From IMG/VR virus record IMGVR_UViG_2541047812_000003: a stretch of DNA of 37,695 nucleotides; one strand, given 5' to 3'. The notes below the pieces were generated by a model. That model worked only from the letters and a program-made list of their open reading frames with translations. It searched no databases and was not told where the DNA came from. Shown one piece after another: positions 1,459 to 8,300 of this stretch. Position 1 is the stretch's first letter. The number at the start of each line of letters is the position of its first letter. This DNA comes from a virus (lineage: Duplodnaviria; Heunggongvirae; Uroviricota; Caudoviricetes). Made by a program: the position numbers and the translations under genes.

Positions 1459-2622
1459 TTACACATCATTAGTACCTTCCTTATTTTTTGACTGGGACAA
1501 ATTTGGGACCGATGGGTTCAGGATCGAGTCTATTTGCCGTGCGTGTTCGGTAAGGTGATTAGGTGCAAGGTGAGCATATCGACGAACCATTTCGATAGAC
1601 TCCCAGCCTCCCATTTCCTGTAACACTGACAACGGGACTCCGGCTTGAACCAGCCAACTTGCCCAGGTGTGTCTCAAGTCGTGAAATCTGAAATCATCAA
1701 TACCAGCCCGTCTCAGCGCCGCTTTCCAGGCTGTGTTTGCGTCATACCGCATCTTCCTTACTGTTGGCGCTTTCGTTCCGTCTGGTTTGGTACAGCTTTC
1801 CTTGTACACAAATACCCAACGGTGATGATTCCCGATTTGTTTTTTCAAAACGCGACATGCAGTATCATTCAGCGCAACGCCAATTGCGCGGTTTGATTTA
1901 CTCTCTTCCGGGTTTATCCATGCCACCCGGCGCTGCATATCTATTTGTTGCCATTCAAGGTTGATGATGTTCGAGCGTCTTAAGCCTGTTGCCAGTGCAA
2001 ATTCAACAACAGACTTTAATGGCTCCGGACATTCATCAATCAGCCTTTGTGCTTCATGGGGCTCCAGCCAGCGGATCCGTTTATTCTTTGGTTGAGGCAC
2101 TTTAATAATTGGTGCCTTATCCAGCATTTTCCATTCACGCTCTGCGGCTCTTAGTAGGGCCTTTATAAATGAAAGATGCGTAGCCTTCGTTGCAACGGAC
2201 GCTGGTTTTGGCGTGTATTCTGGAACAGGTTTCCCTTTTTTTCTGCATGCTTCTGCCCTGAGTTTCCAGTTTTCCTCATGACGCCGGTTCGTCATTTTCT
2301 GCATTGCTGAATAAATTTTTGATTCAGTAATGTCTCTTAGTTGCATTCCTGCGAAATGTTGAAGCCAGAATCCGATCCGGCTTTTGTCATCGTCCAGTGA
2401 TTTTTTATGTGCTTTCTCTTCAAGCCACCTGACACACGCTTCCTCGAACGTTATATCAGGTATTTCACCAAGTTTGCTGACCCGCCATGCTTCAGCCTTT
2501 AGCTTGTCATGGAGTTCTGTCGCCTGCCTTTTGTCCTTTGTTCCAAGAGACTGTTTAAATCTTTTACCGTTCGGCAATGTGAAACTGGCGTACCATATTT
2601 CACCTCTGCGGAAGAGTGACAT
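1459..2622 (-). CDS. int: tyrosine-type site-specific integrase
   Basis: 387-aa ORF; N-terminus [14 protein letters not shown] typical of phage integrase arm-binding domains; C-terminal catalytic region with [17 protein letters not shown] and [16 protein letters not shown] (R..HxxR..Y signature). Adjacent to the tRNA. Confidence 0.9.
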
Positions 2623-3516: not shown

Positions 3517-4043
3517 TTGCGTAACTCCGATAACTCGTTAAAGCGTTCCATAAACATCCCGTAGGCATGGCCCGGTGCCAGTGGAATCACGTTGAACATC
3601 TCTGTTGCCGGGATACCTTCCAGTACAGGCCAGAAAGAGCCATCATCAAGCCCGAGATCGCGGCGTTCGGTTGCCAGCATGATGAGATCGGCATATTTCA
3701 CGGGCGTACTCATAACTGGGGGTAACCCGTATTTCTCACGGATTACGGCGTCTATTTTTTCTTCCATTTGTTTATAGTCAGGAAGAAGGCGTTTCAGTGG
3801 TGCGGGAATGTCCTGGCAATACGCTTCTGTTGCATCATGCATTAACGCTTCAAAAGCAAATTCCTGCGGCACCAACTGGCTGCAAAGAACCGCATGTTGG
3901 GCGACGCTGTAGAAGTGCGAAAGATGACCGGCAAAGCGACAGATATTTGAAAGGGAAACCGCGATATCGTTAATATCGATGTCGTCTTTATTTATCCTGT
4001 CATAATAAAAATGCTTCCCGGAAAAAGTTTTAATAAATGACAT
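3507..4043 (-). CDS. HD-domain phosphohydrolase (YfdR-like 5'-deoxynucleotidase)
   Basis: Start at internal ATG (MSFIKTFSGK...) preceded by GGAG, rather than the track GTG at 4070; contains H...H and the HD dyad (EALMHDATEAY) of HD hydrolases; 178 aa. Confidence 0.75.
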   Translation of the reverse strand: MSFIKTFSGKHFYYDRINKDDIDINDIAVSLSNICRFAGHLSHFYSVAQHAVLCSQLVPQEFAFEALMHDATEAYCQDIPAPLKRLLPDYKQMEEKIDAVIREKYGLPPVMSTPVKYADLIMLATERRDLGLDDGSFWPVLEGIPATEMFNVIPLAPGHAYGMFMERFNELSELRKCA

Positions 4044-4170: not shown

Positions 4171-4995
4171 TCAGGCGGTGAAAGTACCAATAAAGGTTTC
4201 TACTTTGCTGTCCTTGAATTTCTCAACAAGCAGATCACGAAATTCGTTAGCCATTTCTTCCTGCACCGCCTCCAGCTGAATAATGCGCAGAACCAGTACA
4301 GGACGATCGCCAGTGATAATACTGAGGCGTAATTTAAACGGACGTTCTTTCAGACCTTCAAACGGAACGCATTTAAATTCAAATGCCACTGGCATAATGT
4401 CTTTGGTCTTCGCTTCGACAGACTCCATCAGGGAGCGTTTGCCGCTGAAGTCATTATCTTCAAAATCAGCGGTCTGGTTTGCTTCAATCGTGATTTTACG
4501 GACAGCCGCAGCCGCTTTTGTTGCCTGAATAGCGTCACCATTAGCATCAAAGCCCACAAGATAGTCGGCCCAGTCTTCAATCCATTCTGCCAGTGACTTC
4601 TGGGAGTTACGCTCGCCGTTAACAGACAACAGAGCAGAGAACGGTGCTGTCTTTTTCAGTTTGAGTGTGGCGGTGTTATCTGCGTGACCTGGTTCATCAA
4701 TAGTACCCAGGTTAAGCATACTGACGGCACGCATATTATCAGCATCGATAAAGCAGCGGGTGCCTTCATCTGCAAGATCTTTAGAATAACGGGTAAAGTC
4801 ATCGATGCTGGCAGTGGAAAGCGCACCACGGAAACGGAAGCGATTTAAATTAAATTTTTCCAGATCATGAATGCGGAAATTCTCAGGCAATGCCACAGCA
4901 TCGGCACCAATCTTACTGATAATTTCATTAACACCCTGAGCAGAAATAAGGGCATGGATTTGATTAATTGCGGTTGCGTCTAAGTTCTGAGACAT
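4171..4995 (-). CDS. DUF2303/YfdQ-like phage protein
   Basis: 274-aa ORF with ATG and GAGGA Shine-Dalgarno; length and position match YfdQ of the CPS-53 early block (assignment from memory, no search run). Confidence 0.65.
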
Positions 4996-5061
4996 AATAA
5001 GTCCTCACTATATTAAAGATATTCAGTGATAAGATGAATAATTAGTTTATTAAAAACGATA

Positions 5062-5424
5062 TTAACGACCTGCTGCGCGGAGTTTTCCGTCAGGTTCACC
5101 GGCAAGAGTCAGTAATTGTCCCTGGTCTTCCTGCAGAATAGTCAGGCGACCACCGCGATTGACATACATCGGCGTTTCGGTGGTGTCTTCTTCGGAAATT
5201 TTCCCGCGGTTAGTCGGGCGAACATATGAGAGTTTGTGTTTGATTTTCACACGGTTCTCATCAAATGGTTCGATTTCCAGGTTGAGCGAGACCTTACCTT
5301 TGGTTTTCGTGTTCATCACACCGGAAGCGACTTCACTGAGAACTGCGCCGATTTTGGTTTCAAATACGCCGCCGTCCAGCTCCCCGATAAATGCCTGCAC
5401 ATCAGTACTGCGTTCGCTAGCCAT
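5062..5424 (-). CDS. phage early protein, 120 aa (YfdP-like)
   Basis: Start at internal ATG (MASERSTDVQAFIGELDGG...) preceded by GAGGAG; the upstream 106 codons of the track ORF are Cys/Arg-rich and not protein-like, and overlap the structured non-coding region. Confidence 0.55.
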   Translation of the reverse strand: MASERSTDVQAFIGELDGGVFETKIGAVLSEVASGVMNTKTKGKVSLNLEIEPFDENRVKIKHKLSYVRPTNRGKISEEDTTETPMYVNRGGRLTILQEDQGQLLTLAGEPDGKLRAAGR

Positions 5425-5472
5425 TTTGCTGCTCCTCATCATATCGACCCTGCAAGGTCGGTTGGTTTCTCC

Positions 5473-5561
5473 ACAAAACAGAGAAGAACACCTGCGGTGG
5501 CAGCCGCCCGGATGGATTGGGTTATGAGCCCGTCGTCCGGTGATGCTCTTCTCTGTTTTGT
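5473..5561. repeat. perfect 15-bp inverted repeat (ACAAAACAGAGAAGA / TCTTCTCTGTTTTGT) flanking a 59-nt GC-rich segment
   Basis: Read directly from the sequence; lies in a ~470 bp stretch (5425-5892) with no convincing ORF, alongside further hairpins (GGTACCAG...CTGGTACC) and GGTGCC direct repeats. Confidence 0.6.
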
Positions 5562-5825
5562 AAAAAGGACGGTACCAGCCGGAAGCAAGGGTACAAACTG
5601 GTACCTCCAGGACTACACACAGCATAAAGTTGTGGTGCCGGGTGCCTCCCGGTGCCTGGCGAAGGTTGCACACCAGACGGGTGGGTATCCACAGAAGGTC
5701 GACTGTCAGCCTCAACCTTAACCCGCGTGCGCTGAGCCGCATTCACCACAACGCTAAGGATTCTCTCTGGTTAAAAATACTTAGCTGTTATGTGCCTGCT
5801 TTTAGCCACATCAGGCGAGGTGGAC

Positions 5826-5877
5826 CTGGTTATTCCCCAACAACAAGGATTCGGTTAATCTGGTTATTCCCAACAAC
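5826..5877 (+). repeat. two direct repeats CTGGTTATTCC(C)CAACAAC spaced 34 bp, immediately upstream of the 5893 gene
   Basis: Seen in sequence; the second copy ends 15 nt before the ATG and abuts the AAAGGAAAAG ribosome-binding region. Confidence 0.5.
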
Positions 5878-5892
5878 GCAAAAGGAAAAGAA

Positions 5893-6327
5893 ATGTCCGG
5901 TAATATCTACACGCTGTACAAATCCCACTGTGAAAATGTTGGAAAGTATCGGGGCATTGAAATCAGTGGGGTAGTGTCATCAGTCGAAATAAGCAAAGTG
6001 GAATCAAGGGCAACATTACTTACTCTTCTGGACCTTGTCTTACATGAGCACCGGAAGAAATTCGGCACTCCCTATAATCAGTTGAATGGGAAAAAGGCTC
6101 TGGTTCACCTTATTCTGATGAAGCATCACTGGATGCCAAAACAGATTAATGAGATGAAATTTGATGAACTTCTTCTTTCAATTCAGGATGAACTCACACT
6201 TGATAAAATAAGCGTAACCGCCCAGAAATTTTTAGATTATCGAGACTGGAGATCACAAATTCATCACTTTGATGATTTTGACGAAAATGAATGGGATCCT
6301 AATTTGTCTGCACAATATCTAAAGTAA
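5893..6327 (+). CDS. hypothetical protein, 144 aa, low-GC orphan gene opposite to the early-left operon
   Basis: ATG with purine-rich Shine-Dalgarno; markedly AT-rich versus neighbours; no family recognised; followed by a plus-oriented intrinsic terminator near 6564-6590. Confidence 0.55.
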   Translation: MSGNIYTLYKSHCENVGKYRGIEISGVVSSVEISKVESRATLLTLLDLVLHEHRKKFGTPYNQLNGKKALVHLILMKHHWMPKQINEMKFDELLLSIQDELTLDKISVTAQKFLDYRDWRSQIHHFDDFDENEWDPNLSAQYLK

Positions 6328-6563: not shown

Positions 6564-6590
6564 AAGCGTCCTGTAGGGCGCTTTTTTGTT
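6564..6590 (+). terminator. candidate rho-independent terminator (plus orientation)
   Basis: AAGCGTCC-TGTA-GGGCGCTT hairpin followed by TTTTTTGTT; would terminate transcripts from the 5893..6327 gene. Confidence 0.45.
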
Positions 6591-6672
6591 GCTAACGAAT
6601 CACCCTAGACTTTATATGCCCCAGGCGGCTACTTCGTGGGCGTCCTGCCTGTTCGTTGTTTCTCTTGGGTAC

Positions 6673-6739: not shown

Positions 6740-7414
6740 TTAGGCTTTGATTTTGTATCTTCTTGGTTTTCCTGAGAAAATCACAGTTCCAATTATAGAG
6801 CAATTACCGTTGATCTTAATGTAAGGCTCAGGCCAGTTTGGGTTTAACGCTTTGAGATAACGCTGTGTCCCATCTTCTATCAACCTTTTGAAGGTGGTTT
6901 CACCTGTATCGTGCATCAATGCAATAACGTCGTCACCGTGGCAGGCAGGGACTTCGGGATCAACAAAAATCATGTCTCCAGGGCGGTACTCATCAATCAT
7001 TGAATCACCAATCACCCGCAAGATATAAGTCATTTCGCCACAGGGTACAGGGCAGGGGTAAGTTTCTGCTGTGCTCAAATCAACCTCAGAATAGCCAACT
7101 TCTTTCCATGCTCCGGCCTGTACCCATGATATGACAGGGACTAACGTTATTTGTTTGTTAGTGATTGAAACATCAGGTTTTTTTGTGATGTTCGTGGTCT
7201 GGTGTTCTTGATCAAGCCATCCGACAGGCAGGTCGAAACATTTTTCGATGTGCCGCGCCATGCTGTCACCGATATTTTTAGTAGCACCATCTCCCATAAA
7301 CCTGCTGGTCTGGGTTGGCTCGCGATCAATCATGGTGGCAAAGGAAGAATTCCCGCCAACACCATCTCTCAGTTTTCTGGCGTTAGACCGCCGGATGTCA
7401 TGGATTGTTTTCAT
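6740..7414 (-). CDS. CI-like prophage repressor (N-terminal HTH, C-terminal S24 LexA-type self-cleaving peptidase domain)
   Basis: 224 aa; C-terminal half carries ILRVIGDSMIDEYRPGDMIFVDP (Ser nucleophile in GDSM) and a downstream Lys region typical of the S24 family; divergent from a Cro-like gene. Confidence 0.85.
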   Translation of the reverse strand: MKTIHDIRRSNARKLRDGVGGNSSFATMIDREPTQTSRFMGDGATKNIGDSMARHIEKCFDLPVGWLDQEHQTTNITKKPDVSITNKQITLVPVISWVQAGAWKEVGYSEVDLSTAETYPCPVPCGEMTYILRVIGDSMIDEYRPGDMIFVDPEVPACHGDDVIALMHDTGETTFKRLIEDGTQRYLKALNPNWPEPYIKINGNCSIIGTVIFSGKPRRYKIKA

Positions 7415-7736: not shown

Positions 7737-8300
7737 ATGAGGCTAACCGTGGGTAAGTATCACTGGAAAGTAGAAAAACAGCCTGAGTGGTACGTGAAAG
7801 CTGTCAGAAAAACTATCGCAGCGTTGCCGGGTGGTTACGCTGAAGCAGCTGACTGGCTGGATGTAACAGAGAACGCATTATTTAACCGCCTTCGTGCCGA
7901 TGGCGATCAGATTTTCCCGCTGGGATGGGCAATGGTTTTACAGCGCGCGGCTGGCACTCACTACATTGCGGATGCTGTCGCACAGTCTGCTGGTGGGGTG
8001 TTCGTATCGCTTCCTGAAATTGAGGAAGTAGAGAACGCCGATATAAACCAGCGCCTGCTGGAAGTCATCGAACAGATCGGGAATTACTCAAAGCAGATTC
8101 GTTCGGCAATCGAAGATGGGGTCGTGGAGCCACACGAGCAGACAGCAATTAATGATGAGTTGTATCTGTCAATTTCGAAGCTCCAAGAGCATGCAGCACT
8201 GGTCTACAAAATCTTTTGCGCTCCAGAAAAGAGTGACGCCCGCGAGTGTGCAGCTCCGGGCGTCGTGGCGTTTTGTGTCTGTGGAGAAACTAACGCATGA
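7737..8300 (+). CDS. CII-like phage regulatory protein (possible CP76-type)
   Basis: 187-aa ORF directly after cro in the rightward operon; family call from position and general resemblance only; start could be the in-frame GTG 12 nt downstream, which has a GAGG Shine-Dalgarno. Confidence 0.5.
   Translation: MRLTVGKYHWKVEKQPEWYVKAVRKTIAALPGGYAEAADWLDVTENALFNRLRADGDQIFPLGWAMVLQRAAGTHYIADAVAQSAGGVFVSLPEIEEVENADINQRLLEVIEQIGNYSKQIRSAIEDGVVEPHEQTAINDELYLSISKLQEHAALVYKIFCAPEKSDARECAAPGVVAFCVCGETNA

Follow-up and report, generated by a model that had tools for sequence, protein, structure and literature searches.

The closest described relatives of the RNA considered here are STnc100 (RF02076), PasD and EcOnc27, a family of small RNAs (sRNAs) carried by prophages of Salmonella and pathogenic E. 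coli. PasD gives a band on northern blots, depends on Hfq for its stability and has partners identified by RIL-seq (PMC8550237). Eleven copies of STnc100 are expressed in EDL933, one of them confirmed by northern blot (PMC5331693), and PasD and STnc100 have been reported to be homologous (bioRxiv 10.64898/2026.05.13.724894). Here we describe a relative of these RNAs at positions 5425-5892 of a window of 37,695 nucleotides (the whole stretch of DNA analysed, IMG/VR record IMGVR_UViG_2541047812_000003), which by its sequence is a lambdoid prophage of the SfIV/SfV type; the region itself is 98.9% identical to Shigella phage SfIV 27224-27690 (BLAST). It sits between a yfdP-like gene on the minus strand, whose ATG is at 5424, and a divergent gene for a 144-amino-acid (aa) protein. 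To judge from sequence and fold, the element at its centre is a divergent member of the STnc100/PasD RNA family. We also propose, with the case for and against about evenly poised, that the region as a whole is the distal part of a long untranslated leader transcribed from the promoter PL, and that this leader works as an attenuator, with RNA release at an intrinsic terminator, T1.

The pseudoknotted core and its family

The STnc100 model of Rfam matches the minus strand at 5782-5560 over its full length (38.4 bits, E = 1.2e-6). Close homologues score similarly against the same model (phiES15 40.6 bits, ST64B 35.1 bits), and the copies that we group with this element as "class W" all fall at 35-41 bits, below the Rfam cut-off, which is why standard pipelines leave them unannotated. 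Other Rfam families gave only weak, chance-level matches in 5200-6100 at E <= 10. The core consists of the following parts:

5629-5752, minus strand: pseudoknotted core of about 120 nt, a divergent (class W) member of the STnc100/PasD family by sequence and fold
5752-5744 with 5637-5629, minus strand: helix P1, followed by a GAAU junction
5741-5728, minus strand: helix P2
GGG/CCC, minus strand: helix P2.1
5719-5713 with 5668-5662 (inside the P4 loop), minus strand: helix P3, the pseudoknot
5678-5673 with 5659-5654, minus strand: helix P4
5652-5648 with 5642-5638, minus strand: helix P5, loop AGGCA

Two sequence blocks of the core are present, GGUGAAU on the 5' side and ACCGGGAGGCACCCGGCACCA, and an invariant 22-mer, CACCGGGAGGCACCCGGCACCA, occurs exactly at 5654-5633 on the minus strand, where none is expected by chance. 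The exact 22-mer is found in more than 120 IMG/VR contigs, and it is nearly invariant even in copies that were picked by their 5' motif alone. GGTGCC repeats had been remarked upon in a first-pass annotation of the sequence; they lie at 5634, 5641 and 5651, and are the plus-strand complements of the 3' strands of P5 and P1. A 15-mer pattern scan of genome contigs returned almost only chance matches in unrelated phyla, and one useful E. coli locus (L196).

We built a covariance model of the family, R1, with the window sequence as part of its seed. On the window it gives 78 bits, as its sole hit, and homologues outside the seed score 38-81 bits. About 90 distinct copies compared share the order P1, GAAU, P2, P2.1, P3, P4, a variable insert and P5 (CCGGG-AGGCA-CCCGG). 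When 98 hits were aligned, 97.4% of cells were paired, against 41-48% with slid partners, and 19 of 25 base pairs had changed on both sides, in an alignment fitted to the covariance model, which favours structure. The pseudoknot is absent from that model and so provides an independent test: the 5' strand of P3 finds at least 6 contiguous base pairs in its own P4 loop in 87% of sequences, compared with 19% for mismatched partners. An earlier per-sequence shuffle test of the pseudoknot had given weak significance, its search space being too loose. The full-length, sub-threshold STnc100 match, the covariance model hits and the 19 covarying pairs together bear out the first-pass reading of the region as a structured RNA, for which an Rfam scan, folding of both strands and a search for covarying substitutions had been suggested as checks; stems are preserved by compensatory changes in relatives, and each strand folds better than its shuffles, the minus strand more strongly so.

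Folded whole, the 467 nt give z = -3.98 against shuffles for the minus strand and z = -2.82 for the plus strand; the functional strand is the minus strand, that is, the direction of PL. The folding signal arises from 5443-5785, where the 89-nt hairpin T2 alone reaches z = -7.3 and the hairpin P0 reaches z = -4.3. Segment 5786-5892 is no more structured than shuffles (z = +0.27), and the claim of some 470 bp of dense structure accordingly holds for about 360 nt and fails for the last 107 or so.

The stretch contains no protein-like open reading frame (ORF), as had also been observed from the sequence. Its overlapping ORFs match no Pfam family and overlap one another, on both strands; substitutions relative to other lineages are spread flatly over the codon positions (20/19/14 for ST64B, 20/19/20 for Klebsiella phage Kp4866-6 and 12/9/13 for e14), whereas the adjacent coding sequence shows a third-position excess (19/22/64); and many indels relative to these lineages break the frame. 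On these grounds we reject a coding reading of the region. Compared with ST64B, the non-coding stretch is 83% conserved and the adjacent coding sequence 68%. Three annotated proteins are overlapped:

5062-5742, minus strand: SfIV orf34
5630-5974, plus strand: SfIV orf35
3576-3887 of the K-12 locus (L126): ymfH

We set the start of the yfdP-like gene at 5424 because the PHROG 204 match is limited to residues 101-225, the last 125, of the 226-aa ORF annotated as SfIV orf34; homologues of about 120 aa are annotated in ST64B, Stx2a_1447 and cdtI. The left boundary drawn in the first-pass annotation is therefore exact. YmfH, the N-terminal 100 residues of SfIV orf34 and SfIV orf35 are probably annotation artefacts. 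A small ORF starting from an AUG in the 3' strand of P1, present in CAUGGUG-type copies, was also considered and rejected: its peptides are unconserved, and GUGGUG-type copies have no AUG.

Class-W copies occur in ST64B, phiES15, Kp4866-6, Flotzy, three IMG/VR lineages and e14, a defective prophage of K-12. They share a distinct P2 (UGCG-GCUCAG-CGCA, then CGCGGG) and a CCG rather than GCG junction before P4, and they do not have the AT-rich, -10-like hexamer that canonical copies carry about 7 nt upstream of P1; where canonical copies have this hexamer, the hairpin P0 abuts P1. In the eight lineages tabulated, all class-W helices are kept through compensatory changes across phages of Escherichia, Salmonella, Klebsiella and Cronobacter. 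P3 appears as AAGGUUG/CAACCUU, AAGGCUG/CAGCCUU, GAGCCA/UGGCUU or AGACUGACAAA/UUUGUCAGUCU, and P5 as CCGGG/CCCGG or GGUGG/CCACC around a constant AGGCA loop. In e14, whose copy carries the protein annotation YmfH, some of P5 is gone, and by its sequence the K-12 ymfH ORF is a decayed copy of the element. In two IMG/VR lineages, L011 (~4457-4900) and L059 (~1057-1400), upstream modules, a class-W core, linker and terminator stand ahead of unrelated cargo genes, ORFs of 305 and 264 aa that lie between the terminase and portal genes in the opposite direction of transcription. Because these leaders precede unrelated inserted genes, the leader appears to behave as a portable cassette. In phiNP the core has been replaced by something else, and the linker motif is retained.

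Two further features of the family deserve mention. The invariant P5 hairpin (5652-5638, minus strand), found in all family members, exposes GGGAGG, a Shine-Dalgarno-like sequence. Several STnc100 copies in EDL933 have notable ribosome footprints, with ribosomal coverage values of up to 3.2 (PMC5331693), and the core RNA may contact 30S subunits. In some phages, STnc100-type units stand in tandem, three to five of them head to tail and about 260 nt apart, each with its own terminator. The arrays are located in IMG/VR contigs as follows:

2327-3349 of L009: tandem array
4381-5458 and 8381-8514 of L056: tandem array
1727-2340 of L025: tandem array
374-987 of L017: tandem array

Linker, terminator and flanking modules

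On either side of the core lie modules that are conserved to different degrees among the related phages:

5609-5628, minus strand: single-stranded linker, with a conserved motif, UGCUGUGUGUA, at 5624-5614
5562-5608, minus strand: T1, an intrinsic terminator, GGA-GGUACCAG / CUGGUACC-(G)-UCC, then UUUUU (5566-5562)
5473-5561, minus strand: T2, a Y-shaped hairpin of 89 nt; basal stem of 20-25 bp, perfectly paired over the outer 15, and two hairpins within
5425-5472, minus strand: proximal 5' untranslated region (UTR) of the yfdP-like gene, with GGAGAAAC, a small hairpin at 5462-5443 and the ribosome-binding site GAGGAG at 5436-5431
5753-5785, minus strand: hairpin P0, GCUAAGUA.../...UCCUUAGC, directly 5' of the core
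5786-5892, strand unspecified: upstream segment, abutting the start of the divergent 144-aa gene
within 5786-5892: module M1, CCACCUCGCCUGAUGUGGCUAAAAGCAGGCACAUAACA, conserved in e14, phiES15, Kp4866-6 and Flotzy
5819-5885: two tandem direct repeats of about 34 nt, GTTGTTGGGRAATAACCAG (minus strand), shortly upstream of the start of the 144-aa gene

The linker motif UGCUGUGUGUA, conserved in nearly all class-W lineages, lies directly upstream of the terminator in e14, ST64B, Kp4866-6, phiES15, L011, L059, Flotzy and phiNP, and is kept even where the core or the terminator stem differs. From this pattern we infer that the linker could be a seed or a region of Hfq contact.

T1 has an 11-bp stem with one bulge (-18.5 kcal/mol, z = -2.9). 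It extends a hairpin picked out in the first-pass annotation, in which GGTACCAG (5571-5578) does pair over all 8 positions with CTGGTACC (5598-5605). Other lineages have T1 stems of at least five different kinds at this position, and a U-tract follows every one of them. Term-seq data from K-12 (PMC7815308 supplementary file 1) include a minus-strand 3' end, 1201195, that coincides with the final U of the e14 homologue's tract, so T1 is a terminator used in vivo, at least in e14; a further 3' end, 1201257, lies three nt past P1.

T2 corresponds to the inverted repeat described from the sequence alone, which is present as two 25-nt arms (5473-5497 and 5537-5561) with 84% complementarity, the outer 15 nt, ACAAAACAGAGAAGA and TCTTCTCTGTTTTGT, pairing perfectly around 59 enclosed nt. 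It folds at -45.5 kcal/mol, and its basal stem and both inner hairpins show compensatory changes in e14, ST64B, Kp4866-6, Flotzy and phiNP; both of the hairpins first noted are in this way kept in phages of other genera. T2 always lies about 45 nt upstream of the yfdP-like start codon. Its flanks are A-rich on the 5' side and U-rich on the 3' side, but its status as a terminator is doubtful because the U-richness of the 3' flank is not kept in Klebsiella, Flotzy and phiNP. Together, T1, T2 and the 5' UTR (5426-5609, module A) are 97% conserved in many Stx and other phages (BLAST), and upstream of module A those phages carry different cores closed by the same P1 (GUUGUGGU.../...ACCACAAC).

P0 has counterparts at the same place that are built from unrelated complementary stems, GAUAAGAGUU/AACUCUUAUC in ST64B and AUGAAGCGCAUU/AAUGCGCUUCAU in phiES15. 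Further upstream, single related copies of the direct repeat occur in e14 and phiES15, and Kp4866-6 has another repeat pair at the same place; the repeats may be regulatory sites for the plus-strand gene, and the last ~100 bp of the region would more probably be part of the promoter or 5' region that serves the divergent 144-aa gene. Long-range pairing between M1 and the linker amounts to only 5-6 bp and is inconsistent. Inside the e14 M1 (at about window position 5793), K-12 Term-seq records a minus-strand 3' end, 1201423, that is strong under each of the three conditions (109,000-285,000 reads); no U-tract follows it and it was scored as not Rho-dependent, which suggests a processed or otherwise stabilised RNA end.

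Proposed attenuation at T1 and its alternatives

The gene context that bears on the function of the leader is as follows:

6740-7414, minus strand: cI-type repressor, followed by its terminator
6700-6673, minus strand: candidate PL promoter, TTGACA-16-CATAAT, a strong promoter-like site from the promoter scan
between PL and T1, minus strand: 68-aa ORF of unknown family, the sole ORF there in the window
5893-6327, plus strand: 144-aa ORF of unknown function, ATG at 5893
from 5424, minus strand: yfdP-like gene, then genes for a DUF2303 protein and a phosphatase and, farther along, xis and int
1369-1444: tRNA-Thr(CGU), adjoining the integrase gene (1459-2622, minus strand)

In the window the order runs from cI through PL and the leader to the yfdP-like gene, and the same layout is found in ST64B, cdtI, Ayreon, Stx2a_1447, Flotzy, phiNP and e14. 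This constant position (repressor, PL, leader, core, terminator, delayed-early genes) is one reason to regard the element as part of the PL transcript and not as a separate gene. Another is that P0 covaries and there is no promoter next to P1: no -10-like hexamer lies upstream of it, by sequence pattern only, and the promoter scan found none nearby. A third is that ymfH, xisE and intE of e14 are co-induced by DNA damage, an effect that depends on LexA being cleaved (PMC11228462).

We envisage that, after repressor inactivation, transcription from PL, the presumed source promoter, would pass P0, and that the polymerase would next transcribe the ~120-nt pseudoknotted domain and the conserved linker and then reach T1 and, directly after it, T2. 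The transcripts would divide between termination and read-through in some ratio. The fraction that stops at T1 would form a stable, structured RNA ending in a hairpin and U-tail of the sort that Hfq-bound RNAs typically have at the 3' end; this STnc100-like RNA would probably act on targets in trans, like its relatives, with the linker and terminator as a plausible seed and Hfq-binding module. Read-through transcripts would carry the yfdP-like, DUF2303 and phosphatase genes and then xis and int. T2 is a candidate for a second barrier and/or an RNase III processing site, probably one that would set the 5' end of the yfdP-like mRNA.

Several observations weigh against this model. The element misses the Rfam gathering score (47 bits), and at the gathering threshold the window has no hit in this region. 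Its genomic setting differs, too: every STnc100/PasD copy described so far is a unit of the late region that has a promoter to itself. In the K-12 data, the read counts of the 3' ends at T1 and past P1 are near the lowest on that strand's list and are far exceeded by those of the 3' end upstream, in M1, and this in vivo evidence comes from the e14 homologue in K-12, not from the SfIV-type phage itself. The U-tract of T1 has five U, which is short for a strong Hfq-binding tail, and phage-internal targets complementary to the linker motif are no more frequent than chance. Finally, sRNAs that act simply by base pairing do not usually have a 5' domain that is ultra-conserved and pseudoknotted, and its presence hints at a different or further function; the invariant GGAGG-exposing hairpin and the tandem arrays of up to five units are likewise unusual for such an RNA.

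One might instead expect the core or leader to act in cis, either by modifying RNA polymerase, as the HK022 put RNAs do, or by switching its fold like a riboswitch or attenuator, so that PL transcripts pass T1 and T2 in a phage without a recognisable N. This is a possibility that we regard as real, though distinctly unlikely. The element always lies in the PL leader directly upstream of an intrinsic terminator (at least eight lineages), it has a compact, aptamer-like pseudoknotted fold with invariant junction nucleotides, and in the leaders of related phages the corresponding place is taken by other cores, with the same closing P1. Moreover, no ORF is annotated between cI/PL and T1 in ST64B, cdtI, Stx2a_1447 and phiNP, so the left transcript would encode no antiterminator protein there, and in the window the only such ORF is the 68-aa one; HK022 and HK639 provide the precedent of lambdoid phages lacking N (PMC9378689; HK639 annotation), "lacking N" meaning that no recognisable N was found. 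However, the element has no likeness in sequence or structure to HK022 putL/putR or the HK639 putL-like RNA, and transcripts of canonical family members stop efficiently at terminators of their own and build up as discrete sRNAs, which argues that the core is not a general antiterminator. By inspection, there is also no conserved, mutually exclusive terminator/antiterminator pairing: the arms engaged in candidate P4/T1 pairings are not the same in the window, in ST64B and in Kp4866-6, and phiES15 has no such pairing. Two alternative loading sites also come into question, a separate conserved element at the PL transcript's very 5' end and a 12-mer that resembles boxA.

The first of these, just past the PL candidate (6590-6650, minus strand), is a conserved structured element consisting of AACGAACAGGCAGGACGCCCACGAAGUAGCC, a hairpin and GAUGAUUCGUU. 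Covariation in e14, ST64B, Flotzy and phiNP is seen in both its closing stem (AACGAA/UUCGUU or AGCGAA/UUCGCU) and the hairpin inside it, and an antitermination complex could assemble there. The second is an exact 12-mer, GCTCTTTAACAA (6562-6551, minus strand), which matches the rrn/nut boxA consensus and directly follows a hairpin at 6583-6564; a one-mismatch match arises in 14% of shuffles, so the 12-mer is weak evidence by itself. Read on the plus strand, the hairpin at 6583-6564 is a good terminator for the 144-aa gene.

It is also conceivable, though we hold it only tentatively, that two things hold together: the STnc100/PasD core would be a compact pseudoknotted domain with a sequence-specific partner (RNA polymerase, the ribosome via the GGAGG hairpin, or a phage or host protein) and would, in N-less phages of the SfV/e14/ST64B type, govern tL read-through from a modular PL leader of 0.5-1 kb. 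If true, early genes in these phages would be controlled by a new RNA-based switch that differs from both N/nut and put.

A free-standing sRNA gene, made in the lysogen independently of PL from an unrecognised promoter in 5786-5890, seems to us improbable. Canonical copies, with their AT-rich -10-like hexamer about 7 nt upstream of P1, are expressed in lysogens; the leaders of L011 and L059, ahead of cargo genes that run against the structural genes, would need their own promoter; and minus-strand 3' ends are seen in this region of K-12 without induction. Yet the scan found no sigma-70-like promoter in 5786-6100 on the minus strand (a weak site lies at 6139), the covarying hairpin upstream of P1 argues that the RNA extends further 5', and expression of e14 ymfH tracks SOS induction.

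Less probable still is that T1 and T2 serve simply as a barrier or insulator, terminating or processing transcripts, and that the remainder is a decaying, functionless STnc100 relic. The 97% conservation of 5426-5609 in many phages with a different upstream core would fit this, and the e14 copy, with part of P5 gone, illustrates that the core can decay. But decay is seen only in that defective prophage, while compensatory changes keep the core in Escherichia, Salmonella, Klebsiella and Cronobacter phages, and the core is more conserved than the neighbouring coding sequence.

There is very little to recommend an element resembling a miniature inverted-repeat transposable element, or a site that works as DNA (an operator, or a recombination or replication signal). 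P1 does resemble a terminal inverted repeat of 9 bp, members of the family are found in several kinds of location and, in some phages, as tandem arrays of three to five copies, and BLAST conservation has sharp mosaic boundaries. The first-pass annotation had offered a small non-autonomous element as its second reading; this one fell away, as the element is present once in the window without flanking direct repeats of the target-site type, and its copies differ by helix-preserving compensatory substitutions, variable inserts and a pseudoknot that indicate selection on an RNA fold. That SfIV orf34 (226 aa), SfIV orf35 and K-12 YmfH are correctly annotated as proteins is scarcely credible: the open frames exist and are annotated in SfIV (KC814930) and K-12, but no Pfam or PHROG family spans these stretches, which also have the flat substitution pattern, disruptive indels and mutual overlap on both strands described above.

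Elsewhere in the window, two known RNAs lie in the right operon on the plus strand and score above the Rfam thresholds, isrK at 8657-8733 (60 bits) and C4 antisense RNA at 8758-8845 (68.4 bits). The pair is also present in Stx2a_1447 and cdtI, and ST64B has isrK alone; it looks like the antirepressor control module of P1 and Gifsy-type phages. K-12 Term-seq also records an extremely abundant minus-strand 3' end antisense to ymfL (1203751; 14-50 million reads), and the sequence around it appears, by eye and from the translation, to match the reverse complement of the 3' part of window ORF 7737-8300 (~8230-8290, minus strand). At the other end, ORF 1-1254, given the tRNA and integrase genes that follow, looks host-derived; if so, the window would include a prophage junction at a site of the thrW type.

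Significance and comparison with known systems

Part of the region is present in 2781 of 5426 complete E. coli genomes, about half, and most of it in 1626; the element is also found in Shigella, Salmonella, Klebsiella and Cronobacter phages. Its current annotation is none at all, or hypothetical proteins (the N-terminal part of SfIV orf34, orf35 and K-12 YmfH). The family is already known, and the object is not of a new kind. What is new here is a sub-threshold class-W variant, an early-left leader context that is conserved in several genera, a covariation-supported pseudoknot added to the fold of the family, and the reassignment of K-12 ymfH and SfIV orf34-N/orf35 as RNA, which corrects those annotations. 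These findings extend a virulence-linked family of prophage sRNAs (PasD, and STnc100 next to stx2) to a new genomic context, and they point to a terminator that would act as a checkpoint in lambdoid phages without a known N protein, separating immediate-early left genes from the delayed-early ones, xis and int among them.

With the STnc100, PasD and EcOnc27 RNAs, the element shares GGUGAAU, a P2 hairpin, the hairpin that supplies the loop for the pseudoknot, the invariant (C/U)ACCGGGAGGCACCCGGCACCA and the closing helix P1, as well as a linker and intrinsic terminator after the core (30-70 nt downstream) and carriage by lambdoid phages. It differs in the sequences of P2 and of the junction before P4, in having P0 in place of the promoter-like hexamer at P1, and in its location in a PL leader upstream of yfdP/kil/xis rather than in the late region, where family members are flanked by Q on one side and by lysis or stx genes on the other, or lie near an esterase gene; the canonical HK639 copy (44780-44985) is one example of a late-region copy. 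The pseudoknot is absent from the Rfam consensus structure of STnc100. The likeness of class W to PasD rests on the published homology of PasD and STnc100.

Like HK022 put and the putL-like RNA of HK639, the element is a structured RNA in a PL leader without a recognisable N, upstream of terminators that precede delayed-early genes. There is no similarity in sequence or fold, however: put is a two-stem RNA of about 70 nt at the 5' end of the transcript, and its hallmark is terminator read-through in cis that depends on the beta' zinc-binding domain, whereas relatives of the element terminate at their own terminators. None of the HK022 putL/putR and HK639 putL-like sequences has the core motifs, and R1 gives no hit at the HK639 putL-like RNA (34187-34312 of L125) or in the PL/PR region of HK022 (L129). 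HK639 carries both kinds of RNA, the putL-like one in its PL leader and a canonical STnc100 in the late region, the latter being the sole R1 hit in that phage.

The PL leader of lambda contains nutL, a large RNase III hairpin upstream of N, and tL1. Common to lambda and this locus are a long double-stranded hairpin in the untranslated leader just upstream of the first downstream gene, a terminator between immediate-early and delayed-early genes, and a boxA-like 12-mer (GCTCTTTAACAA) in the leader. T2, with its stem of about 20 bp ending 45 nt before the first long ORF, may in this respect recall the RNase III hairpin of the lambda N leader, although the hairpin here is Y-shaped and no N homologue or boxB-type hairpin was identified. 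Lastly, the discrete 3' end at a leader terminator upstream of an ORF is shared with sRNAs that derive from prematurely terminated 5' UTRs and riboswitches, as catalogued by Term-seq in E. coli (PMC7815308), and the e14 homologue is itself listed in that catalogue; unlike those sRNAs, the leader domain described here is homologous to free-standing sRNA genes.

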